A stretch of 64,000 nucleotides of DNA from an uncultured bacterium (GCA_937903605.1 CALCZC010000007.1:124459-188458); one strand, 5' to 3'. Counted from the first letter of the stretch, positions 1,449 to 57,353 are shown. Made by a program: numbers and translations. The notes: generated by a model from the sequence alone, not told the origin.

Positions 1449-2543
1449 TTAGTATTTCTTCTCCACCATACTTTCCACTATACCTATAAGCAATAGATTC
1501 ATCATTAATGATGAGCCTCCATAGCTCACAAACGGCAAAGTGACACCGGTGACTGGCAACAATCCGACATTGGCACCAATATTAATAAAAAACTGTGTAA
1601 AAAACAAGGCTACAACTCCCGACACGGTCAAAGCAATAAAATCATTTCCAGTTTTAGAAGCCAAAGATAATAATCGCCAAAAAATAATCAAGAAAAGTAT
1701 TAAAATGACACTAACTCCCAAAAAACCCATTTCCTCGGCAATCACAGAAAAAACAAAGTCAGTCTGTGTTTCTGGTAAAAATCTCAATTGACTTTGTGAA
1801 CCAAAACCCAAACCACGGCCAAATAAATTTCCAGATCCAACCGCGATTATAGATTGAGTAACGTTATAACCGGACCCCAATGGATCGTGCGCCGGATTTA
1901 TAAAAGTTAAAACCCTGTCTTTTTGATAATCCTTTAACAAGAAAAACCAACTGAAAACAGATAGAACTATAAAAAAAACAATAAAACCAAAAATCAGGGA
2001 TTTTTTGGCTCCGGTTAAAAACATCAAGATAAACCAGATAGCTCCCAAAAGTATTGCCGATCCCAAGTCCGGTTGACCCATCACAAAAAAAATCGGAGTT
2101 AAGGTTAAAAATAAAGTAAAAAAGAAAAATTTAGGTCTCTCAAATTGTCTCCCCGCATTGGAGATAACATAAGCCAACATCAAAATCAAACCGACTTTAG
2201 CCAACTCTACCGGTTGAAAAGAAAAACCGGCAAAATTAAACCAACCGGTGGTACCACGAATATTTTGTCCGAATAACAAAACTCCGATCAACAAAATAAC
2301 AGAAGCAAAGTAAAACCAGCGGGCATAAATCTTGAAGAAAGTATATTGCAAAGCACTGCTAAAAAACAAAATTATCAGTCCCAACGATAAGGCTAAAATT
2401 TGTCTTTTGAAATATATCAATTCACTGCCCCGAGATAAATCCACGCTGTAAATAGCCATCAATCCGAAAGCAACCAAAAAAAATACGGCCAAAAAAAGAA
2501 GCCAGTCAAAACTCCTCCCTGAGAATTTGGCCAAACTAAACAT
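1449..2543 (-). CDS. SEDS-family peptidoglycan glycosyltransferase (RodA/FtsW/SpoVE)
   Basis: 10-TM protein with the FtsW/RodA signature ...SGYNVTQSIIAVGSGNLFGRGLGFGSQSQLRFLPETQTDFVFSVIAEEMGFLG... Confidence 0.85.
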   Translation of the reverse strand: MFSLAKFSGRSFDWLLFLAVFFLVAFGLMAIYSVDLSRGSELIYFKRQILALSLGLIILFFSSALQYTFFKIYARWFYFASVILLIGVLLFGQNIRGTTGWFNFAGFSFQPVELAKVGLILMLAYVISNAGRQFERPKFFFFTLFLTLTPIFFVMGQPDLGSAILLGAIWFILMFLTGAKKSLIFGFIVFFIVLSVFSWFFLLKDYQKDRVLTFINPAHDPLGSGYNVTQSIIAVGSGNLFGRGLGFGSQSQLRFLPETQTDFVFSVIAEEMGFLGVSVILILFLIIFWRLLSLASKTGNDFIALTVSGVVALFFTQFFINIGANVGLLPVTGVTLPFVSYGGSSLMMNLLLIGIVESMVEKKY

Positions 2544-2544
2544 A

Positions 2545-3504
2545 CTATCTTACCGGTTCAAAATAAACACTTCTTTCAAAATAATTGATGGAAGGATAAA
2601 TGACAATTTCGTCAACAGAAAGATTATCAGCAAAACTGCGTAAATCTATATTTCTCCTTTGCAATGATTCAAATCTTTCCAAGCGTATTTCTGCCACTCC
2701 CGTGGTAAAACCACCACTTTTAAATTCTACTAAAAATGTCGGGTCCCAGTAGTGAAACGGGCTATTGTTTATAAGATCAAACTTGATAATATTGGCATTT
2801 GCTCCTTCCGGATGTAAAACACCTTTAAAATCAAAATTTTCGACTACAAATAGATTTCTCTGCATAATATAGCCAATCGGATCGGGAAATAAATGAGCAT
2901 TCAATCTTTTAAAGGAAATATTTTCCAAAATCAAACCCGAACCATAATTATCCTCCAAACCAAATTCAGCAAACAACTTTGTTTCTTGTGGTAAAAGAAA
3001 GCCTTTCTTTTTTTCTGTCAAAACACCGTTAAACGAAAAATAATAATCGAAATAAACCACATGATTGGCGTTGGGGTTGGAAATTTGAGCCACTGCATCA
3101 TATTTACCGACACCGGAAACAAAAATTTGTGTTTCATCCATTAATAAAGCTTGTGGAGCAAAAATAGAACGTATTCTTTCATAATCATCAGAACGAGTCA
3201 TCTGTTCAATAGTTTTGTTGTCACGAGGTATCTCTATAATAAAAATCCAAGCAATCCTAAGTACAGAATAAAAAATAGTAATAACAGAAAAAACAACCAA
3301 ACAGCCTACCAAAATACGATACAATAACATGCGATTTTCTACATACCAAGCGGAAAAATTCAATTGGCGATTACTAAACATTCCCGTCGGATCTTCGTAT
3401 TTTTTAAAACCGTTTTTTTTGAGACCTTTTAAATTCGGGATATCTTGACCCGCATTAACGATTTTTCTTTGGTCTAAATTATTTTTTTGCGAATAAAAAT
3501 CCAT
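2545..3504 (-). CDS. Hypothetical membrane-anchored protein (single N-terminal TM, ~250-aa extracytoplasmic domain), co-oriented with the SEDS gene and abutting it
   Basis: A 319-aa ORF ends 1 bp before the SEDS start. TM segment LLYRILVGCLVVFSVITIFYSVL. No recognisable transpeptidase motifs (no SXXK). Confidence 0.6.
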   Translation of the reverse strand: MDFYSQKNNLDQRKIVNAGQDIPNLKGLKKNGFKKYEDPTGMFSNRQLNFSAWYVENRMLLYRILVGCLVVFSVITIFYSVLRIAWIFIIEIPRDNKTIEQMTRSDDYERIRSIFAPQALLMDETQIFVSGVGKYDAVAQISNPNANHVVYFDYYFSFNGVLTEKKKGFLLPQETKLFAEFGLEDNYGSGLILENISFKRLNAHLFPDPIGYIMQRNLFVVENFDFKGVLHPEGANANIIKFDLINNSPFHYWDPTFLVEFKSGGFTTGVAEIRLERFESLQRRNIDLRSFADNLSVDEIVIYPSINYFERSVYFEPVR

Positions 3505-6935: not shown

Positions 6936-6955
6936 CCTGCCTGTCGGCAGACAGG
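6936..6955. repeat. GC-rich palindrome, variant of the CCTGCCTRCCGGCAGGCAGG family
   Basis: cctgcctgtcggcagacagg lies immediately 5' of a MITE family-B copy. Confidence 0.7.
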
Positions 6956-6960
6956 ATACT

Positions 6961-7034
6961 GTCATTCCTGCGAAGGCAGGAATCCAGTGGCTATCTTAAT
7001 TTTTCCTGAGGATCCCCGCCTTCGCGGGGATGAC
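6961..7034. repeat. MITE-like element, family B (GTCATTCCTGC-hairpin-GAATCCAGTGG...TTTCCTG-GGATCC-hairpin-GATGAC)
   Basis: Second copy at 9759-9875 with the same termini and spacer motifs but different internal hairpin arms. Confidence 0.75.
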
Positions 7035-7123
7035 AATTGGGACTATTTTTAAATATCTTAATATCCAATATCCCAATATCTTTTTGGCTACATTTAGCCA
7101 AAATCACCAGTGCACACCCAATC

Positions 7124-11538: not shown

Positions 11539-12075
11539 CTAAAAGGTAAAATTTAAAATAAACAAAAAATAATACATAATCAAACTGGAAACCAAGGCGG
11601 TTAAAAATCCAGCTAGGGCGTCCAATGGATAATGTACTCCACAATAAACCCTTCCCCAAACTACCCATAAAGCCAGAACAAACAAGCCGCTGATATAAGG
11701 TAATCCAAAAATTATAGCTAGAAAAAAAATAAGAAAAGCGGTCATAGCATGATCTGAAGGAAATGATTTCCAAGCCATCACTGGAGTAAACAGTTGTTTT
11801 ATTTCCGGCATTTGCACCTGGGGACGATTTTCTTTTATCAAAAAAGCTATTGCTAAATCCAGCAACCAGGCAAAAATCCAAGCTATAGGTAATGCTAATA
11901 ATCTAGTATACAACTTTTCTAAAGTCGAAGAACTGACCATAACAGATACAAAATACCAGCCGGCCATGGCAATAATAACAAATTCCGCCCCAGCTTTACC
12001 AAAAGAGTCCAGCCATTTATTTTTACCTATTAATTTGTTTATTTTTAGAAAAATTTTAGTATTTAAATCCATCAT
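11539..12075 (-). CDS. PAP2-family membrane phosphatase (phosphatidic acid / undecaprenyl-diphosphate phosphatase type)
   Basis: Multi-TM protein with PAP2 motifs KENRP...SFPSDHA...YCGVHYPLD. It abuts the nucleotidyltransferase gene and is co-oriented with it. Confidence 0.75.
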   Translation of the reverse strand: MMDLNTKIFLKINKLIGKNKWLDSFGKAGAEFVIIAMAGWYFVSVMVSSSTLEKLYTRLLALPIAWIFAWLLDLAIAFLIKENRPQVQMPEIKQLFTPVMAWKSFPSDHAMTAFLIFFLAIIFGLPYISGLFVLALWVVWGRVYCGVHYPLDALAGFLTALVSSLIMYYFLFILNFTF

Positions 12076-12087
12076 ATATTTTTTGCT

Positions 12088-12116
12088 ATTTTACCAATAA
12101 ATAAATGTTTTGGCAA
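12088..12116 (-). promoter_or_regulatory. Sigma70-like promoter (TTGCCA-17-TAAAAT) for the PAP2-nucleotidyltransferase unit
   Basis: Minus strand reads tttgccaaaacatttatttattggtaaaat. Confidence 0.5.
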
Positions 12117-12172
12117 ACTTGAAGACTACTTGCCAAAAAATAAAAAATACGCTAATATTTATTCACATTTAC

Positions 12173-12229
12173 GCGCCCATAGCCTGCCTGCCGGCAGGCA
12201 GGCTCAGTGGTTAGAGCACTGCCCTTATA
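12173..12229 (+). pseudogene. Degenerate 5' half of the downstream tRNA (through the anticodon loop), with a 21-bp palindrome inserted in the D-arm
   Basis: gcgcccatagc[ctgcctgccggcaggcaggct]cagtggttagagcactgcccttata, then divergent sequence. Compare the intact tRNA at 12272. Confidence 0.65.
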
Positions 12230-12271
12230 TTCGCTAAATGAGTAGTAAAACACAAATTTGCCGTGCGCCAA

Positions 12272-12344
12272 GCGCCCATAGCTCAGTGGTTAGAGCACTG
12301 CCCTTATAAGGCAGGGGTCGATGGTTCAAGTCCATCTGGGCGCA
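12272..12344 (+). tRNA. tRNA with anticodon UAU (reads AUA, Ile). Cloverleaf is intact and CCA is not encoded.
   Basis: Acceptor gcgccca/tgggcgc, D-stem gctc/gagc, anticodon stem ctgcc/ggcag with loop cttataa, T-arm gatgg-ttcaagt-ccatc, discriminator a. Confidence 0.75.
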
Positions 12345-12437
12345 CGACAAATTTGTATTTTCTGCGAATGGCGCGAATATATCATCTACGCTCGAAGAAA
12401 ATAAAAATAAATTTTTGCTTTACTTCTCGCTTGATGA

Positions 12438-12480
12438 TATAAGGCAAGGGTCGATGGTTCAATTCCATCTGGGCGCACCA
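12438..12480 (+). pseudogene. Degenerate 3' half-copy of the same tRNA (anticodon loop to CCA)
   Basis: tataaggcaagggtcgatggttcaattccatctgggcgcacca, with 3-4 mismatches to the intact gene and an encoded CCA. Confidence 0.65.
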
Positions 12481-12499
12481 AATAGTGTATAGAAAAGAT

Positions 12500-13465
12500 A
12501 TGGAAAAAATAAAAAAATTGATTGTCAAAAATACCGACGCTTATCAGCGTCTGGATTTGTTTTTAACGGAAAAATTGAACATTAGTCGCTCGCAAGTACA
12601 AAAAATGATTGAGAACAATCAAATTTTTATCAACGATATAGCCCCTAAAAAAACCGGTGAAAAAATTTCCACCAATGATATTGTTACTGTTTCAACCTTT
12701 AAAATCAGTAAACAAGAAAAAAAAGAAAACTTAATAAAAAAAGAAAGCGATGTTTCTTTACGTCCGGAAATAATCGCTGAAGAAAAAGATTTTTTAATAG
12801 TTAACAAACCATCCGGATTACTTACACATAACACGGAAAAAGAAGATTATTCGATGGCCGAATTTTTGGTTAAAAAATATCCAGAAATAAAACATGTCGG
12901 TGAAGATAAAAGCAGACCTGGCATAGTTCATCGCCTAGATAAAGAGGCTTCCGGTTTATTGGTTGTCGCACGCACTCAAGAAATGTTTGATTTTTTAAAA
13001 AAACAATTTCAAGACAGAACTATTGAAAAGGAATATTTTGTTTTGGTTCATGGGCAAGTTTCTGCCGATACTGCAATAATTGATTTTCCGCTTGAAAGAG
13101 GAAAAAACAATGAACGCATGGCCGCTTTACCTAAAATTGTCAAAGGAATAGAGAACGAAAAAGGAAAGGACGCTATAACAGAATTTTGGGTAGAAAAAAG
13201 ATTTGTCAATTTTTCTTTTCTAACCGTTAAAATTCACACCGGCCGTATGCATCAAATCCGCGCCCACTTTTTGGCCTATGATCATCCGGTAGTCGGAGAT
13301 ACTCTTTACTTTCAAAAAAAACAAAAACGAAAATGGGATGACGAACTTGGGAGATTATTTTTACACAGTTATAAATTGGAGTTTACGGATCTACAAGGCG
13401 AGAGAAAACATTATGAAATAGAGTTACCGGACGAATTAAAAGATTTTTTAAAGAAATTAAAATGA
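12500..13465 (+). CDS. RluA/RluD-family 23S rRNA pseudouridine synthase (S4 domain plus catalytic domain)
   Basis: HRLDKEASGLLVVARTQEMFDFLKKQFQDRTIEKEYFVLVHG contains the catalytic Asp motif. The start is set at ATG 12500 rather than the GTG at 12485 used by the ORF track. Confidence 0.8.
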   Translation: MEKIKKLIVKNTDAYQRLDLFLTEKLNISRSQVQKMIENNQIFINDIAPKKTGEKISTNDIVTVSTFKISKQEKKENLIKKESDVSLRPEIIAEEKDFLIVNKPSGLLTHNTEKEDYSMAEFLVKKYPEIKHVGEDKSRPGIVHRLDKEASGLLVVARTQEMFDFLKKQFQDRTIEKEYFVLVHGQVSADTAIIDFPLERGKNNERMAALPKIVKGIENEKGKDAITEFWVEKRFVNFSFLTVKIHTGRMHQIRAHFLAYDHPVVGDTLYFQKKQKRKWDDELGRLFLHSYKLEFTDLQGERKHYEIELPDELKDFLKKLK

Positions 13466-25432: not shown

Positions 25433-25570
25433 AAATCCCAATGTCCAAATCCCAATTCCCAATCAAGGCCCAATGCCTAAATGATCAAATATTTTTAAGA
25501 TTTTGGGCTTAGGATTTGACCTGCCTACCGGCAGGCAGGTTGGTCATTGGTCATTAGGGTTTGGTCATTT
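25433..25570. repeat. Second copy of the cccaat/ttggtcattgg element, here with the GC palindrome ACCTGCCTACCGGCAGGCAGGT (25518-25539) embedded
   Basis: aaaatcccaatgtccaaatcccaattcccaat...acctgcctaccggcaggcaggttggtcattggtcatt. Confidence 0.6.
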
Positions 25571-29917: not shown

Positions 29918-31093
29918 ATGAAAATAGGGATAGATGCGCGCCTATACGGTCCAAAACAGGGCGGCTTAGGACGATATCTACAACAATTGATAGAAGGACT
30001 AGAAAAAACGGATTTGCAAAACGATTACGTAGTTTTTTTGCGTCAAGAAAATTTTTTCGCCTATACACCCGTCAATCCTCGTTTCAAAAAGGCACTGGCC
30101 GATATCCCATGGTATGGCTGGCAAGAGCAAATTTTACTGCCTAGAATTTTGAAAAAAGAAAATTGTGATTTTGTCCATTTTCCCCACTGGAATATCCCTG
30201 TTTTTTATAACAAAAAATTTATAGTCACCATTCACGATCTAATTTTGTTCCATTATCCAAGTCGCCAATCCAGCACCTTGGGACCGTTGAAATATTTTTT
30301 TAAAAATCTCGCCTATAGATTTATTTTGCGTCATGCGGTTAAAAAAGCCACTCAAATAATAACCCCAAGTAATTTTACCAAACAGGATGTAACTAAAAAC
30401 CTACACGTTCCGGAAGAAAAAATCACCGTAACATATCTTGCCCCTGTCTTAAAAAATAATATCCAATATCCAACCTTGCCTACCGGCAGGCAGGTATCCA
30501 ATACTAACAACCAACAAAATAATGATAAAAACCAAAAAATCCTTCAAAAACATGGGATAACCAAAAATTACCTGTTATATGTCGGTGTTGCTTATCCTCA
30601 CAAAAACCTGGAACGTCTGGTTAGAGCTTGGAAAATGTTTGAGAAACAAAACAAAAATTTTCAACTTGTTCTGGTTGGCAAAAAAAATTATTTTTACGAT
30701 CGCTTGATAAATTCCGAAATTTTCAAAAGTTGTAAAGATGTCATTTTTACCGATTTTATTCTTGATGAGAATCTAGTTGATATTTACAAAAACTCCAGCG
30801 CTTATATTTTTCCGTCTTTATACGAAGGTTTCGGACTACCGCCGCTTGAAGCTATGCAATATGGCATCCCGGTTATTTCTTCAAATAAAACCTGTCTCCC
30901 AGAAATTTTGGGAGATGTCGCTTTATATTTTGAGCCGCAAAATGAACAAGATATTTGTTCAAAAATCAATCTTATTTTAACCGATTCAGATACACGCCAA
31001 AAACTTATCAACAACATACCGGATATTTTGTCTAAATATAGCCAAAAAAATACCGCTGAAACTACTTTATCGGTTTATAAAAAAATGGTATAA
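29918..31093 (+). CDS. GT4-family glycosyltransferase carrying an in-frame palindromic-repeat insertion
   Basis: MKIGIDARLYGPKQGGLGRY... and ...SLYEGFGLPPLEAMQYGIPVISSN. The insert YPTLPTGRQVSNTNNQQNNDKNQ is encoded partly by accttgcctaccggcaggcaggt (30473-30495). Confidence 0.8.
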   Translation: MKIGIDARLYGPKQGGLGRYLQQLIEGLEKTDLQNDYVVFLRQENFFAYTPVNPRFKKALADIPWYGWQEQILLPRILKKENCDFVHFPHWNIPVFYNKKFIVTIHDLILFHYPSRQSSTLGPLKYFFKNLAYRFILRHAVKKATQIITPSNFTKQDVTKNLHVPEEKITVTYLAPVLKNNIQYPTLPTGRQVSNTNNQQNNDKNQKILQKHGITKNYLLYVGVAYPHKNLERLVRAWKMFEKQNKNFQLVLVGKKNYFYDRLINSEIFKSCKDVIFTDFILDENLVDIYKNSSAYIFPSLYEGFGLPPLEAMQYGIPVISSNKTCLPEILGDVALYFEPQNEQDICSKINLILTDSDTRQKLINNIPDILSKYSQKNTAETTLSVYKKMV

Positions 31094-37221: not shown

Positions 37222-37857
37222 ATGAGAAAAACATCTTTCTTCGTTTTACTTTTATCCGCATTTTTTATCGCCGGGTGTTTTAGACTAACAGTTGAAAAAC
37301 CCTATCCGCTACCGGGGGTTATAGAACAACAATATTATGAAACCGCGGATTTGAAAATAATCCTTTTGGAACCCTTTACAATAAAAGACGAGAATGGGAC
37401 CGTAACTCTTTCTCATACGGTAGAAACTTTTCTTCATACTGATTTTTGCGATTTCAAGGGCGATTCTCTGCCAACTACTACTTTTCACGACCTTACTATC
37501 AAATTTTCTTTTACTACTCTATCGCTTGATAGAGCTCTGACAAAATTTGGCGGAGAATATCTAAAAGAGTTTGTAAATACCGACGGCACTATAAAAGAAG
37601 AAACAGGATTTTTGGAAAAAACAAAAATCGGAGACCGCGAGGGATATAAACTGACACAAGGAGTTGAAGGGTGTGGCCACGACCAATATTATTTTTCAAC
37701 TGAAAACGGTGTTTTGATAGTTCAAAAAAACTTTGTTCCCGAACTAACCGACCTTAATCCGCAAAAAGAAAAATTTTCTTCTATCCCCGGGGTTATCTTG
37801 CCCGACGAGGCTAATGAATTGTTTGAAAAAACAGTGAGATTTACCGGGGTGAAATAA
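37222..37857 (+). CDS. Hypothetical lipoprotein
   Basis: Signal peptide with lipobox LSAFFIAGC. 211 aa. Confidence 0.6.
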   Translation: MRKTSFFVLLLSAFFIAGCFRLTVEKPYPLPGVIEQQYYETADLKIILLEPFTIKDENGTVTLSHTVETFLHTDFCDFKGDSLPTTTFHDLTIKFSFTTLSLDRALTKFGGEYLKEFVNTDGTIKEETGFLEKTKIGDREGYKLTQGVEGCGHDQYYFSTENGVLIVQKNFVPELTDLNPQKEKFSSIPGVILPDEANELFEKTVRFTGVK

Positions 37858-37882
37858 AAAAGGCCCTTTTCAGGGCCAAAAT
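37855..37882. terminator. Bidirectional terminator
   Basis: aaaaaggcccttttcagggccaaaatc. Confidence 0.7.
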
Positions 37883-38745
37883 CAATATTTATTATAGAAC
37901 TCTTTTAGCTTTGGATGGTATTCTGTTCCACCATTGTATTGAGTTCCACATTTTTGAATATTACTGGGCGACAGGGCCAAACATTCTTCGCTTTTTTTGT
38001 CTTTTTCAAGCCAATAAGCGATAAAAAGTTTAACACTGTTTTTAGGAGACAATATAACATCCCCTTCGCTCAGGCGTAAATTCATCCTGGCTGTAAAACC
38101 CGGATTGCCTTTTCCCATCAGAACATGAAAGTAGGAAAAGGAGTATGCTTTATACTTTTTTTCCCAACGATTTAAAGCATACACACCGAGCTCGCTTTCG
38201 GCCATGGCGTAGGCATAAGCAGATCTTTTAACGTCCTCTTTTGAGACGGTTTTCATAAATCCACTAAACCTTTTGCCATATTTGGGAGTTTTCTTCATTT
38301 CTTCTATGGCTTCATCAGTCTCAGCAAGAAATTTTTCTTTACTAGTAATCCTCTTACTTTTTTCTATCGGAATTGCCAATAAAAAACCCGGGTGTATGAC
38401 AGTGCCTGGGATATTGAATCCAAAAACACCTTGGTACTCCCTATAGTTCAGGTACTCAAACTTTGGGCCACAAGATTTTTTTATCTTGTCGACAATCGTT
38501 GTCAGATTGTCATTGTTCTGAACACGATAGAAAAAAATATCGTGTTTTTTCTCTTTTTTCAGAGAAAATTTTCCATTGCAGTCATGATATTCAAAGATAT
38601 CAATTTCCTTGGCTAATTCTTCATTCTGAATTTCCTCTTCAGCAGCCACCTCTTTTTCTCTTTTTTCTTTCACAACCTTCTGAATCGCAATAACTACCAA
38701 AACGATAGTTACAATGACGACTATTGCTTCAAAGCTTTTTCTCAT
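37882..38745 (-). CDS. Hypothetical N-terminally membrane-anchored protein (287 aa)
   Basis: TM AIVVIVTIVLVVIAI, strong SD (gggaggcgtatcATG) and a canonical promoter at 38792-38820. Confidence 0.6.
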   Translation of the reverse strand: MRKSFEAIVVIVTIVLVVIAIQKVVKEKREKEVAAEEEIQNEELAKEIDIFEYHDCNGKFSLKKEKKHDIFFYRVQNNDNLTTIVDKIKKSCGPKFEYLNYREYQGVFGFNIPGTVIHPGFLLAIPIEKSKRITSKEKFLAETDEAIEEMKKTPKYGKRFSGFMKTVSKEDVKRSAYAYAMAESELGVYALNRWEKKYKAYSFSYFHVLMGKGNPGFTARMNLRLSEGDVILSPKNSVKLFIAYWLEKDKKSEECLALSPSNIQKCGTQYNGGTEYHPKLKEFYNKY

Positions 38746-38791
38746 GATACGCCTCCCTAAGCGTTATGTTATTAATGAACTAAAACGGTAT

Positions 38792-38820
38792 ATTATAACA
38801 TATTTTAACGATTTTGTCAA
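38792..38820 (-). promoter_or_regulatory. Consensus sigma70 promoter cassette (TTGACAAAATCGTTAAAATATGTTATAAT)
   Basis: Nearly identical to the cassette at 39891-39919 and similar to 53604-53632. Confidence 0.65.
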
Positions 38821-38894
38821 TACCCTAATTTGGCTAAAATAAGCAAAAATAAAAAATCCCCGTCCAGGCTTTTTCAAGCTTGAACGGGGGTGTA

Positions 38895-39839
38895 TTAAAA
38901 GAGCGTTGGTAGTGCGTCTACGGCTGGGGTAAACCCCTTTGGCACTGACGGCACATACCGCACTTGGGTTTTCCTCTGTCGGAACCCCTCCTCCAAAGAC
39001 ACCTTGTTTTTCTTTGACAGTTTTACCGGACCATCAAAGTAGTCTTTGGCAGCCTGGACATCCTCTTCTTCAGTAGCCTTCTTCCAACTGTCATTCTCAC
39101 TTAAAAGATATGACAGATAAGAATTAAAGGTTGTTTCAGAAGTCGGGAAAAGTAGTCCCAGATAATTGACCGAACTAGATTGATCATATCTTATGACGGT
39201 ATAAATCTCTTCACTGGTCAGTCCTCTGGAGGGATTTTTCAAACCCACTTTTCCAGCCATTAGTGTGTAGTCCTTATCATCGGTTTTTATCCAAACCGCT
39301 TTTAAACCCCACACCGGCAGTCTGGAAACTTTTCCCTCTGCCACAACAACAAGGGTCATATACAGATCTTCTCCGGATGGAGATGCCCAATTCGGAATCT
39401 TTTCCGGTATGTTTTGGGTCTCGGTATATTCCCGGAGCCACATACCATGAAGCAAAGCCGTGTCTTTATATATCAAGACATCGTCTTTGTAAAACTCCGA
39501 TCTTCCTTGACCGGGGAAATTCACGAGTCGTTCACCAAAAATTTCCTTTTCGGTTACCGTCTCCGTGACTGAGCATTTTTCTTCATCAAAAGACATGGTG
39601 TGTCTCTCAAATCCGATTTTCTGCCCATCTACCCCGTTGATGATCTTCGTATAAACAGCCGATTGAGTGTCGACTTTTTTTACGAAGCCATCCTTGTCAG
39701 GAAGCTTGGTGACGATGTCACAGGTTTCCTGGACCACAACCACTTCTTCCTCAGCACCGTCGCTGAAAATGAAGTAAAGGGAAACAAGAATCAGCGCTAT
39801 CGCAACTACGATAAGCGCGCTTTTGGAATGCTTTTTCAT
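38895..39839 (-). CDS. Hypothetical N-terminally membrane-anchored protein (about 314 aa)
   Basis: The start is set at MKKHSK (ATG 39839), which is preceded by SD taggagggcaatcATG. The ORF-track start at 39884 would sit at or before the predicted transcription start. Confidence 0.55.
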   Translation of the reverse strand: MKKHSKSALIVVAIALILVSLYFIFSDGAEEEVVVVQETCDIVTKLPDKDGFVKKVDTQSAVYTKIINGVDGQKIGFERHTMSFDEEKCSVTETVTEKEIFGERLVNFPGQGRSEFYKDDVLIYKDTALLHGMWLREYTETQNIPEKIPNWASPSGEDLYMTLVVVAEGKVSRLPVWGLKAVWIKTDDKDYTLMAGKVGLKNPSRGLTSEEIYTVIRYDQSSSVNYLGLLFPTSETTFNSYLSYLLSENDSWKKATEEEDVQAAKDYFDGPVKLSKKNKVSLEEGFRQRKTQVRYVPSVPKGFTPAVDALPTLF

Positions 39840-39890
39840 GATTGCCCTCCTATAGGCAAAGTTAATAAATTTCCAAGGAACCAACGAAGC

Positions 39891-39919
39891 ATTATATCAT
39901 ATTTTAATGATTTTGTCAA
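39891..39919 (-). promoter_or_regulatory. Consensus sigma70 promoter cassette (TTGACAAAATCATTAAAATATGATATAAT)
   Basis: Minus strand reads ttgacaaaatcattaaaatatgatataat. Confidence 0.65.
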
Positions 39920-40062
39920 CCCCTAAAATATCTTTTTGGCCAATATTAGCTAAAATATAATGTTTTTATCAAAATTTACTCTAATTTTAGGTAAAATATA
40001 ATTTGGATAAAAGTTGGCTAATATTAAATAAAAAACCGCGGACTGAGCCGCGGATTAACTTT

Positions 40063-40425
40063 TTAGCCATGGTGTTTTTCTATTACCTCCTCCAGGGCAT
40101 AGAAATTTTTATGCTTGGAAATAAAATCTTTGACTTTTTCGTCAAATTCTTTTTCCCCGCATTTATCAACTACAACTATCTCGTTTTTTTCATATTCGGA
40201 AAGAATCTTTTCTGCCATTTCCAAGGGTATGGTCTCCCCGCTTTTTAATTTAGGAAGCCCAAGCTGGTTCACGGCAAAAACCGGTTCAAAATTTTCTTTG
40301 ACATTTGAAAGATGAAAACGACCTTCCAAAACTTCAAAGAATTTTTTTCTTCCGGCTTGAAACCTATCTTCTTTCCAAAAACATTCGGTTCCGACCTCAA
40401 AAGTGATAAAAATTACTTTTGTCAT
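40063..40425 (-). CDS. Small cytoplasmic hypothetical protein, paralog A of a three-gene array
   Basis: MTKVIFITFEVGTECFWKEDRFQAGRKKFFEVLEGRF... Own promoter (40471-40499), SD gggggtgacaaATG and a ccgcgg-type hairpin terminator. Confidence 0.55.
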   Translation of the reverse strand: MTKVIFITFEVGTECFWKEDRFQAGRKKFFEVLEGRFHLSNVKENFEPVFAVNQLGLPKLKSGETIPLEMAEKILSEYEKNEIVVVDKCGEKEFDEKVKDFISKHKNFYALEEVIEKHHG

Positions 40426-40470
40426 TTGTCACCCCCTATGAAAAAATTTTTATCAAAAGAACAGACTACT

Positions 40471-40499
40471 AATTTACTCCTTCACAATATTTTTGTCAA
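40471..40499 (-). promoter_or_regulatory. Consensus-like promoter (TTGACA-17-TAAATT) for paralog A
   Basis: Minus strand reads ttgacaaaaatattgtgaaggagtaaatt. Confidence 0.5.
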
Positions 40500-40527
40500 A
40501 AACAAAGCCCCGACAAAATCGCGGGGC

Positions 40528-40917
40528 TTACAGCTCTTCACCTTCCATTTTCCCCTTAAAAATAGATTTCAACAGAAGTGTGGTTCTATTTTCAAAGTAG
40601 AAAATTTCTATTGGGTGATCATCCTCTCTCATGATGTCCGCCATAAAAAGAATTTTCTGGTTTATTTCCAGGGATTCATGAGCTTGGACAACTACACCAA
40701 CAATTTCCGGATTCCTATCTCGGAAATAATCTCCAAGAACCTTGGAAGGCGGAATGTCTGGAGGAAGATCGATGTGTCTGATAACAATTTCAATATCCTC
40801 CTTCACTCCAAACCTGGCTTTTATCCTTTCCAAAAAATACTTGATAAACTCGCGATATCGCGAACTATACCAAGTATTTGTCGGATCGGAAAAGGTAATC
40901 AGAATTAGCCTTCTCAT
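40528..40917 (-). CDS. Small cytoplasmic hypothetical protein, paralog B
   Basis: MRRLILITFSDPTNTWYSSRYREFIKYFLERIKARF... aligns with paralog A across the first ~40 residues. Own promoter, SD aaaggaggataagATG and a hairpin terminator gccccgacaaaatcgcggggc. Confidence 0.55.
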   Translation of the reverse strand: MRRLILITFSDPTNTWYSSRYREFIKYFLERIKARFGVKEDIEIVIRHIDLPPDIPPSKVLGDYFRDRNPEIVGVVVQAHESLEINQKILFMADIMREDDHPIEIFYFENRTTLLLKSIFKGKMEGEEL

Positions 40918-40967
40918 CTTATCCTCCTTTTATTTTTATTATTAATGTACTAATTAAATTACATCAT

Positions 40968-40996
40968 AATATAGCACAAAAAGCCAATTTTGTCAA
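40968..40996 (-). promoter_or_regulatory. Consensus-like promoter (TTGACA-17-TATATT) for paralog B
   Basis: Minus strand reads ttgacaaaattggctttttgtgctatatt. Confidence 0.5.
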
Positions 40997-41097
40997 TCGG
41001 TCTTCGTCCGCCAGATAGCGGACTACGCCCGACAAGTCCTCTAAATAAAAAACCGCGGATTTTAACCGCGGAAGTAAAATCTATTTTGAAATAAACT

Positions 41098-41652
41098 TTA
41101 CATAAACTTTTTTGGCGGACCAATTATCTCTGACGCGCTTTCGCAAATTTTCTGAAACCCTATCTTTGCTTTTGTAATTTCTTTCTCATGTTTAGGAGAA
41201 TTGATCTTTTCTTCTTTTTCAGGAAAAATAACTTCTTCCCCTTCAAAATAACTTTTCCTGATCCCTGTAACTTTTACAAAACCTTTTTCGGTTTTATAAA
41301 GCATGGTGGCGTTTTCAGGAAACCGACTTACCTGTTTCCATATTTCTTCATCAATTTCCTTTTTACCACAAGCCATGATGAAAAAATCATCTGGCTCTTC
41401 TTTTTTGATGTTTTCCTCCAAAAGGGATTCTAAATGAAGATTCGGGTTTTTTATCCTTGCTTCGTCACTTGGAAATAAAGAGCCGATTGTCAGAATCTTT
41501 CTTTCTACATTATGATATTTCATAATACCATCATCACCAAGATTACAAATAAAATTGAACGATGTGCTTTTGACTACAACTTCATAAAATCCTTCGTCTT
41601 CAATGCTTTTCCCTTCAAAATACTCTCTAAAAAAAACAACGATTGCTTTCAT
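41098..41652 (-). CDS. Cytoplasmic hypothetical protein, paralog C (184 aa, longer C-terminal tail)
   Basis: MKAIVVFFREYFEGKSIEDEGFYEVVVK... has an N-terminal M-[KR]-x-[IL]-[IV]-x-[IF]-[TF] strand like A and B. SD aaaaggagaaggaaaATG and terminator ccgcggattttaaccgcgg. Confidence 0.5.
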   Translation of the reverse strand: MKAIVVFFREYFEGKSIEDEGFYEVVVKSTSFNFICNLGDDGIMKYHNVERKILTIGSLFPSDEARIKNPNLHLESLLEENIKKEEPDDFFIMACGKKEIDEEIWKQVSRFPENATMLYKTEKGFVKVTGIRKSYFEGEEVIFPEKEEKINSPKHEKEITKAKIGFQKICESASEIIGPPKKFM

Positions 41653-56369: not shown

Positions 56370-57353
56370 TGTACAGTACACCTTCAAGGGTTACACTTGT
56401 GGATAATTGCTAAGCTAAGATATTTCTCGTAAGGAGTAAGCCCATTCATGCCTTTACCTTCATGTGGTCTTTGATGGTTGTACCAATAAGTATAAGCTTG
56501 TAGTTTGTTCCAAGGACGATTTTCATTTAAATAATATTCATCATCAATACTTCTGTTAGCTCTTTCTACTTTACCATTCCAAGGAGCAGATCTTTTAGGA
56601 ATATATCTATGAATTATGTTTTTGTTGTTTAAATATTTGTGGAACACCCCTCTAAATTCCGAACCATTATCTGTTTGAATACCTACAATTAGAAAAGGAA
56701 AATATCTTTTAGCTTGTTGGTATGCCCAGATAGTGGAAAAAGCATCTTTGCTTTTTGTTTCTATGGCAAATTGTAGATTGGTAACTGTGTCTAAAAATCT
56801 ATATTGATAACTCCAAGTTAAATCTTCTCCTGGTACGTATTTTACGTCTAATTGCACGTTTTCTCCGGGTATTAGGGCTATATATGGTTTTTTCAAAGGA
56901 GCATACCAAGACTGCTTCTTCTGTGGTTTTCTAATTAAATGTCTTTTTTTATAGTATTTATATATTGTATTGGCAGATATTTTTAATTTGTAATTTTTTT
57001 CTAAAAACAGTTTCATTTTATTAGGTCCAAAATTATATTTAATTTTGTTTTCATAAATAATAACCTTGAACTTCGTTGTTAATTTTGTTTGAGGATGAAT
57101 CTCTCTTCTTTTGGAGTTTCTAAATACTAAATGATGGTCCAAATTATACCATTTGTAATATGTCTTTCGACTAATACCAAAGACATTACAAATCTCTTTA
57201 ACTGTCTTTCCATATTTATCAACTTGTAGATACCAACGAGCTCTCATTTCAGAAGGAGCGCTTAAAGGTGTACCTGCCATATTTTTATTTACTAAGGATT
57301 AAAAGTGTTACCCTTAGTTTAGCAGAGTGTTACCTTTTATGGTGTACTATACA
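56370..57353. mobile_element. Complete insertion sequence (~984 bp) with imperfect terminal inverted repeats and a 5-6 bp target-site duplication (a)GAGTT
   Basis: Left end TGTACAGTACACC-6-GGTTACACT. The reverse complement of the right end is TGTATAGTACACC-6-GGTAACACT, with a second GGTAACACT copy. Flanks are ...caagagtt|IS|gagttgg. It carries a single DDE transposase ORF. Confidence 0.8.
56384..57280 (-). CDS. IS transposase (N-terminal HTH plus rve/DDE integrase core; IS481/IS3-like)
   Basis: ...IQTDNGSEFRGVFHKYLNNKNIIHRYIPKRSAPWNGKVERANRSIDDEYY...YNHQRPHEG... is typical of a DDE integrase catalytic domain. Confidence 0.8.
   Translation of the reverse strand: MAGTPLSAPSEMRARWYLQVDKYGKTVKEICNVFGISRKTYYKWYNLDHHLVFRNSKRREIHPQTKLTTKFKVIIYENKIKYNFGPNKMKLFLEKNYKLKISANTIYKYYKKRHLIRKPQKKQSWYAPLKKPYIALIPGENVQLDVKYVPGEDLTWSYQYRFLDTVTNLQFAIETKSKDAFSTIWAYQQAKRYFPFLIVGIQTDNGSEFRGVFHKYLNNKNIIHRYIPKRSAPWNGKVERANRSIDDEYYLNENRPWNKLQAYTYWYNHQRPHEGKGMNGLTPYEKYLSLAIIHKCNP

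Follow-up and report, generated by a model that had tools for sequence, protein, structure and literature searches.

An intact tRNA-Ile(UAU) gene nested between the halves of an older copy at a hypervariable locus of Patescibacteria genomes

Introduction

How does an intact tRNA gene come to lie between a copy of its own 5' half and a copy of its own 3' half, with only about 0.2 kb of non-coding DNA separating the two pieces? tRNA genes are classic landing sites of mobile DNA, where the incoming element repairs the displaced 3' end and brings an integrase and cargo. It was in these terms that such an arrangement was interpreted in a sequence-only reading of 64,000 nucleotides of DNA from an uncultured bacterium (this whole stretch is referred to as the window): the half-copies were taken for scars of integrase-mediated insertion followed by excision, or for the mark of a recurrent integration hotspot. 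Canonical tRNA-targeting islands displace the 3' fragment only (PMC4383910), and the literature covers both tRNA-gene att sites (Islander, PMC4383910) and tRNA gene fragments (PMC9897764). In Patescibacteria, moreover, the anticodon loops of tRNA genes can harbour group I introns (PMC13011429). In this study, we compared the locus with about 20 related loci and found that it is best described as a live tRNA gene in a dead predecessor, at a hypervariable spot of CPR genomes.

Results

Genomic setting of the tRNA locus

The window belongs to a 35% GC genome of the Patescibacteria (CPR), and its nearest named relatives are Candidatus Magasanikbacteria MAGs. The tRNA locus is located between a PAP2 phosphatase gene (11539-12075, minus strand) on one side and an RluA/RluD-type pseudouridine synthase gene (12500-13465) on the other. 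Its sequence recurs identically in five independent assemblies, three from ENA and two from Logan, and is therefore not an assembly artefact, an explanation that is also ruled out by the orthologous layout of the related locus L019. The other tRNA gene of the window, Leu-CAG (22355), has no partial copies as judged by BLAST against the 64-kb window. Elsewhere in the window, five consecutive ORFs of 184-329 aa (37222-41652) have no Pfam match at E<=1e-3.

The live gene and the outer halves

ARAGORN calls a tRNA-Ile(tat) gene at 12272-12345 (plus strand), which has no encoded CCA and is matched by the Rfam tRNA model over 12272-12344 (76.8 bits, E 6e-17); we refer to it as the live gene. On the same strand, a copy of tRNA nt 1-37 ending in CTTATA lies upstream (12173-12229), and a copy of nt 34-74 beginning with TATAAGG and followed by the ancestral trailer lies downstream (12438-12478). 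ARAGORN, Rfam and sequence identity thus confirm what had been noticed at the outset, an intact UAU tRNA between a 5' and a 3' half-copy, and the pieces are genuine half-copies whose breaks lie in the anticodon loop. The gaps between the live gene and the outer 5' and 3' halves measure 42 nt and 92 nt, respectively, instead of the 43 bp and ~95 bp first given.

The outer 5' half had been called degenerate, but it is actually an exact copy of the live gene (37/37) with a 20-bp palindrome (PAL) inserted: 12173-12182 corresponds to nt 1-10 and 12203-12229 to nt 11-37, and a 28-nt block of this half matches the live gene with a BLAST E of 5.6e-11 in the 64-kb window. The outer 3' half is identical to the live gene at 39 of 41 positions (E 5.8e-14, same search). 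Its two mismatches are at 12447, where G43A breaks the 27:43 pair, and at 12463, in the T loop (nt 59); G43A is common to the window and the related locus L027. The bases CA directly after this half give GCGCA-CCA, so that a CCA does read there, as had been noted. Relatives, however, have cac|Taaatag (CTA) at this position; the CCA of the window is therefore a chance T-to-C difference, and an encoded CCA was rejected as a mark of function.

The two outer halves overlap by 4 nt, TATA, which corresponds to nt 34-37 (the anticodon and nt 37). When joined in silico without PAL, they fold as tRNA-Ile(tat) with a single C27:A43 mismatch, whereas the Ile call of ARAGORN is lost when PAL is kept. Upstream of the dead 5' half is a sigma-70-like promoter, TTGCCA-17-TAATAT (12130-12158, plus strand), the sole plus-strand promoter match within 12000-12560, and the leader that precedes the 5' half (about 12100-12172) is kept in relatives.

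Structure of the insert

The DNA between the outer halves is a non-coding insert of ~208 bp, composed of a 148-bp unit and a 56-bp palindrome and carrying the live gene. The earlier statement that no cargo remains is thus misleading, since this DNA is the cargo. In the 148-bp unit (12230-12377), imperfect inverted arms of ~43 nt (TTCGC.../...GCGAA) enclose the live tRNA. On the left is the 42-nt spacer SPA (12230-12271, plus strand), an inverted copy of the last 7 nt of the live tRNA and of TR36; TR36 (12346-12381, plus strand) is the trailer of the live tRNA, ends in GCGAA-TATA and forms the right arm. TATA plus SPA matches the reverse complement of 12339-12381 at 35 of 43 positions, including a 26-nt stretch at 88%, and the SPA homologue present in L019 gives the same 35/43. 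That the spacer on the left repeats the trailer on the right in inverted form marks both as parts of one unit and not as two unrelated island remnants. The 56-bp part, INS56 (12382-12437), is an imperfect palindrome, TCATC...GATGA, with TATA on both sides and a fold as a single hairpin; its halves match at 21 of 28 positions. Terminal inverted repeats, a feature of MITEs, are present in both parts of the insert, as the arms of the unit and as the halves of INS56.

TATA occurs three times on the plus strand (12226-12229, 12378-12381 and 12438-12441), once at each boundary of the insert parts, and deletion of 12230-12381 and 12382-12441, each part with one TATA, restores CTTATAAGG and an intact anticodon loop. 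Direct repeats of similar kind bound two inserts of the related loci, ATAA at INS2 and TATAA at a 66-nt insert of L006. Because TATA is self-complementary, a target-site duplication is indistinguishable from inverted-arm ends for the two palindromic parts. A reading of the whole as one circularly permuted palindrome (56/73 identity) is not independent evidence, as such identity is automatic for two palindromes that share TATA.

The differences between the arms of the window and those of L019 are not compensatory in this comparison of two sequences, so that the hairpin looks like a relic; a selected RNA helix of leader and trailer was rejected on the same ground. A search of the 64-kb window and about 150 kb of related DNA placed SPA, TR36, INS56, INS2 and the GC hairpin inserts at this locus alone, which counts against mobility of these modules as a multicopy element.

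Variability among related loci

About 20 related loci were gathered through the adjacent RluD and PAP2 genes and through one DNA pattern, and their modules were mapped by BLAST. Several of the contigs compared are short, come from Logan or metagenomes and end in the repeats, and some "alleles" (L026, L032) could be repeat-induced mis-joins. Contigs start or end inside tRNA pieces in L004, L005, L016-L018, L022, L024-L026 and L013; repeats routinely break public assemblies here.

In three loci (L023, L008 and L009) the leader is followed by a single tRNA, which suggests that the single-gene state is ancestral. L019 has the same order as the window, namely 5' half, SPA, tRNA, TR36, INS56 and 3' half, without PAL and with one additional old 3' fragment, in flanks that are 78% identical. 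L029 consists of the leader, an intact tRNA, TR36, INS56, the 3' half, a spacer and an older 3' fragment, and has no 5' half. L027, whose PAP2 protein is 97% identical to that of the window, contains the window's PAL and, in the D loop, a further GC hairpin; a 13-nt spacer takes the place of SPA, an additional INS2 of ~110 nt precedes the 3' half, and that half holds two hairpin inserts. An interrupted 5' half and other spacers precede the intact tRNA in L021, L013 and L007, and the intact tRNA is followed by a remnant 5' piece, INS2 and the 3' half in L006 and L014. Despite these many arrangements, from a single tRNA to stacked and nested fragments, the breakpoints fall at tRNA nt 34-39 in all ~20 loci, and every locus readable across its length has one intact tRNA copy. 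The proposal of a recurrent hotspot is thus well founded; a layout that did not vary among relatives would have spoken against it, and the layouts do vary.

L019 also bears on the origin of the pieces. Its outer halves carry GCGCCTG.../...CAGGCGC, which pair with each other, and its inner gene carries GCGCCCA/TGGGCGC. A single older gene therefore gave rise to both outer halves, and the inner gene is of different origin. Joined, the outer halves of L019 form a perfect cloverleaf, and their allele is that of the single tRNA of L009.

Filled and empty sites, another feature of MITEs, were found in three pairs of relatives, on contigs that are short: L025/L026, L014/L006 and, for INS2, the window and L027, the latter being filled and the equivalent site of the window empty. 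L025 and L026 agree at all of the 2348 nt that lead up to tRNA nt 34 (100% identity); beyond this point they differ, one having an intact gene and the other TR36'-INS56'. Differences between such near-identical strains fall right at the breakpoints of the anticodon loop. The TATAA-bounded 66-nt insert of L006 is missing from L014. In a similar manner, L013 and L014 part at nt 21, with 98.5% identity before it.

The modules are far better conserved than their surroundings. TR36 of the window is 35/35 identical in L025 and L026 (flanks about 73%) and 32/32 identical in L014, with flanks merely 73-81% identical across these comparisons, and all positions of INS2 (106/106) agree between L006 and L014 despite a flank identity of 81.6%; such conservation fits lateral spread or exchange at the locus. 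INS56 was found in L019, L025, L027 and L029 and is missing after TR36 in L026 and L014. In L025, the inner TR36 is 88% identical to a downstream TR36 on the same contig. Other 5'-half alleles have unrelated spacers (SPB, 24 nt and 13 nt), so one element type does not explain every allele.

INS2 itself, ~110 nt long and non-coding, is rich in hairpins, includes a terminator-like stem and T-run, and is located at 2802-2907 in L006, 11052-11157 in L014, 1-54 in L022 and about 210-100 on the minus strand of L027. It behaves like a recently spreading mini-element.

GC-rich hairpin inserts occur in the D and T loops of the halves of other relatives. One of them, the D-loop insert on the minus strand of L027, is 33/33 identical to L013 14072-14104, and a 22-nt insert after tRNA nt 64 is 22/22 identical in L014, L024, L025, L026 and L027. 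Insert sites are shared by the dead tRNA pieces of divergent genomes: in the D loop after GGTTA, in the T loop after GGTT, and after TCCAT. Shared descent with conversion, lateral exchange and site-specific insertion are candidate explanations for the identical inserts. In L032 (minus strand, 322-1), an interrupted 5' half with a 36-nt spacer occurs twice in tandem before the contig ends, representing either a true duplication or an assembler loop on a 21-nt repeat.

A gene of ~379 aa, with a signal-peptide-like N-terminus and no Pfam family, lies between the tRNA locus and RluD in L019 (2823-3962) and is also present in L021, L023, L024, L025, L026, L020 and L007; it is absent from the window, L006, L022 and L029. 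This gene is a second presence/absence polymorphism beside the hotspot.

PAL and other dispersed palindromes

PAL, CCTGCCTGCCGGCAGGCAGG, is a perfect GC-rich palindrome at 12183-12202, between G10 and C11 in the D stem of the outer 5' half. It is missing from the orthologous 5' half of L019 and occurs at the same site in L027. Four copies with at most 2 mismatches are present in the 64 kb, compared with 0 expected from 100 shuffles, and with several near-identical palindromic copies PAL is a dispersed palindromic repeat of the REP-like type. The family, CCTGCCTRCCGGCAGGCAGG, consists of perfect or near-perfect palindromes in an AT-rich genome (window 6936-6955, 12183-12202, 25520-25539 and 30475-30494), and PAL-like matches were further found in L009, L015 and L022. 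The copy at 30475 lies inside a glycosyltransferase ORF (29918-31093) with TATCCAA on either side. The copy at 6936 is followed by a cluster of GC-rich hairpins, gtcattcctgcgaaggcaggaatcc and ggatccccgccttcgcggggatgaca (6936-7035), the first motif of which recurs in L013 (8496 and 1842); these hairpins resemble a further family of short dispersed repeats, of a kind typical for these genomes.

Searches for an integrase, cargo, an intron and a nuclease

A tyrosine integrase, which the integration reading would lead one to look for, was not found among the 52 window ORFs of at least 90 aa: 51 were scanned directly against Pfam, with no Phage_integrase match, and the remaining RluD-like ORF was covered by annotation. 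Nor was an integrase found among the available called-gene annotations of the relatives' contigs. The sole recognisable mobile-element gene in the 64 kb, 44 kb from the locus, is an ORF with HTH and rve (DDE integrase core) domains (56384-57280, minus strand), which is IS481/IS3-type transposase-like. An island between the halves, also looked for in the ~20 loci, is not seen either; the largest distance between tRNA pieces is ~250 nt, all of it non-coding, and no kb-scale cargo is present. Pattern scans of IMG/VR with the halves, TR36 and the whole 308 bp gave no match, and BLAST searches of phage and plasmid sequences with the halves and flanks returned generic tRNA similarity only. Of the features of an island or prophage scar, a 3' direct repeat downstream of the intact tRNA is present (12438-12478). 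Displacement is not confined to a 3' fragment as it is with islands, because the promoter-attached 5' half (12173-12229) also lies displaced, upstream of the intact gene. These findings do not support the proposed integrase-mediated insertion and excision.

A cmscan of 11900-12800 against all Rfam families gave no group I or group II intron match at E<=10. ARAGORN, when permitted introns of 0-400 nt, reports the inner gene only, so the fragments are not called as an independent or intron-containing tRNA; a call of that kind had been named as a finding that would refute the integration reading. As flanking exons of a functional tRNA, the outer halves fail in the window, where PAL is in the D stem and C27:A43 is mispaired, and would be intact in L019.

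L009 has an ORF of 221 aa (2127-2792, plus strand), lying between its PAP2 gene and its single tRNA-Ile(UAU), with an N-terminal helix-turn-helix and a LVAGLFLYWGEG motif recalling LAGLIDADG endonucleases. Its only matches in Pfam, NCBIfam and PDB are weak HTH matches. From its sequence, the protein is a candidate nuclease that may act at the locus.

Discussion

At this locus, an intact tRNA gene is nested within an older one that was split in two and, in L019, differs from it in allele; the layout is extremely variable among relatives, and integrase and cargo are absent. We consider it about evenly balanced whether the full account that we favour is correct: a working tRNA-Ile(UAU) sits in the wreck of an older copy, the insert having arrived by small insertion or break repair and having spread by recombination. 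The older gene would have been broken in the anticodon loop at TATA, with its 5' half keeping the promoter and leader and its 3' half keeping the original trailer. A small insertion, or repair of a break, at the TATA(A) of the loop may have put the tRNA-bearing inverted-repeat unit into the resident gene, and the unit may then have spread between lineages by recombination, the conserved tRNA halves serving as arms of homology. The splitting of an essential, apparently single-copy gene would be tolerated because a tRNA comes with the insert.

The redundant halves would subsequently have decayed and gathered hairpin inserts, and once they had decayed the insert could presumably no longer be lost. 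The outer halves of the window are probably dead, given the palindrome in the D stem and the loss of an anticodon-stem pair through G43A, and transcripts of the live gene presumably start at the old promoter and run through the dead 5' half. The repeats may also have been reshuffled by deletion and gene conversion, and deletion between the 37-nt direct repeats could regenerate layouts like that of L029. The same layout, which has no 5' half, also fits a stepwise history in which the 3' half was displaced first and the 5' half was duplicated later.

In a bolder version, the insert would be a non-coding, palindrome-built mobile module of ~0.2 kb with a complete tRNA-Ile(UAU), which enters the anticodon loop of the resident gene, makes good the function it destroys, is fixed in place when the old halves have decayed, and spreads without an integrase among Magasanikbacteria, alongside other TATA(A)-seeking mini-inserts. 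We regard this version as unlikely.

Alternatively, the locus may have been rearranged in situ without any mobile DNA. In a highly transcribed gene, the anticodon-loop TATA would be the site of a break or a stalled fork, followed by microhomology template switching or fold-back synthesis, giving inverted and direct partial duplications that gene conversion keeps similar. Much of the fine structure is what such a process would leave: SPA, as an inverted tRNA 3' end plus TR36, joins the 5' half exactly at the self-complementary TATA, the switch back occurs at GCGCC, an acceptor-stem microhomology, INS56 is itself a fold-back palindrome ending at TATA, and the arms, with no compensatory change between the window and L019, are relic-like. 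The half copies of the window, 100% and 95% identical to the live gene, are also as conversion would give. However, the mutually pairing allele that the outer halves of L019 share, unlike that of the inner gene, needs extra steps, and TR36 and INS56 are missing from the simple loci and so were not local raw material. Moreover, the inner TR36 of L025, at 88% identity to its own downstream TR36, would have been imported and not locally copied. We therefore doubt that rearrangement in situ accounts for the locus.

The classical explanation invokes one or two tyrosine-integrase elements (an island, prophage or plasmid) that entered at the anticodon loop and supplied replacement tRNA parts, and whose bodies were later deleted to tens of nt, leaving attL/attR-like half copies. 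The anticodon loop, in which the breakpoints gather, is a known integrase sublocation (PMC4383910), and 3' fragments stacked downstream of an intact gene, as in L029, L019, L014 and L025, form the classical pattern; replacement of the 3' half may also have been viable, as the hybrid acceptor stem GCGCCTG/TGGGCGC would pair via two G-U wobbles. Against this, the window has no integrase, none of the ~20 loci has more than ~250 nt of cargo between fragments, and a matching attP was not found in the viral, phage and plasmid collections. The displaced 5' half is unlike canonical elements, the junctions share only TATA and no anticodon-stem-like core on the insert side, and the supposed left and right remnants are mutually inverted copies, which is unexpected for the ends of an island. 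This combination makes the classical explanation quite improbable.

Least probable by far is that the outer halves are exons of a functional tRNA, with 12230-12437 as an intron (a degenerate group I intron or a new type) that holds a second tRNA, or that the halves are RNA processing signals: the insert does lie in the anticodon loop, the site of Patescibacteria tRNA group I introns (position 35/36; PMC13011429), the modules are unusually conserved and the outer halves of L019 still give a perfect cloverleaf, but neither an Intron_gpI or group II match at E<=10 nor an intron-permitting ARAGORN call was obtained, the 5' "exon" of the window has a 20-bp palindrome in its D stem and the 3' "exon" a C27:A43 mismatch, L029 lacks the 5' partner half and L007 and L021 the 3' one, and the halves of other relatives have GC-rich hairpin inserts in their D and T loops.

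The favoured account, a live gene in the wreck of its predecessor, shares features with several known systems. MITEs and small palindromic repeats that insert into genes include Correia elements and Rickettsia palindromic elements. Like MITEs, the inserts of this locus are short, non-coding and hairpin-forming, some of them have terminal inverted repeats, filled/empty polymorphism and what may be a short AT-rich junction duplication, and PAL is dispersed. Unlike MITEs, no insert apart from PAL has a copy at another site in the 64-kb window and about 150 kb of related DNA, and we know of no MITE described as carrying a complete functional tRNA and landing in the same tRNA gene. Archaea have split and intron-containing tRNA genes, including the split tRNAs of Nanoarchaeum, with a canonical site at 37/38. 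Like those, the halves described here are parted at the anticodon loop, near 37/38; unlike those, they are in a bacterium, with an intact copy between degenerating halves and no sign of a bulge-helix-bulge or of a trans-splicing leader.

Integrase islands and prophages have in common with this locus the tRNA target, the break in the anticodon loop, the restoration of the gene by incoming DNA and the displaced 3' fragment at the far end. In contrast to them, the locus of the window has no integrase or cargo, the incoming DNA is ~0.2 kb with a whole tRNA instead of the 3' part only, the 5' half is displaced too, the ends of the insert are inverted repeats and identity to the target is limited to TATA. 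The tRNA group I introns of Patescibacteria are found in the same phylum and the same loop, and likewise split a tRNA gene by an insertion of ~200 nt (PMC13011429), whereas the insert of the window has no covariance-model match, a third of it is a complete tRNA, and the "exons" are decaying in the window and unpaired in several relatives.

In summary, the locus is a variant, so far new, of target-restoring insertion at tRNA genes, with the target-restoring logic stripped to a minimum: ~200 bp of non-coding DNA with a whole tRNA inside the old gene. Its host is a genome-reduced CPR bacterium in which neutral DNA is scarce, and yet this 300-bp stretch varies by several indels between strains whose PAP2 proteins are 97% identical. 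If it is only repair debris, it would still mark the anticodon-loop TATA as fragile in a gene that is apparently essential and single-copy, with repeats at which contigs break for assemblers and fragments that can mislead tRNA annotators. True mobility of the insert would make it a target-restoring element of a new, minimal form, through which recombination and horizontal exchange could be approached in uncultivated Patescibacteria. The locus would become considerably more interesting if the 0.2-kb unit proves to be autonomous or mobilised in trans, and if the reading as a palindrome-built module is true, ultra-small CPR genomes would harbour a self-rescuing, gene-in-gene selfish element.
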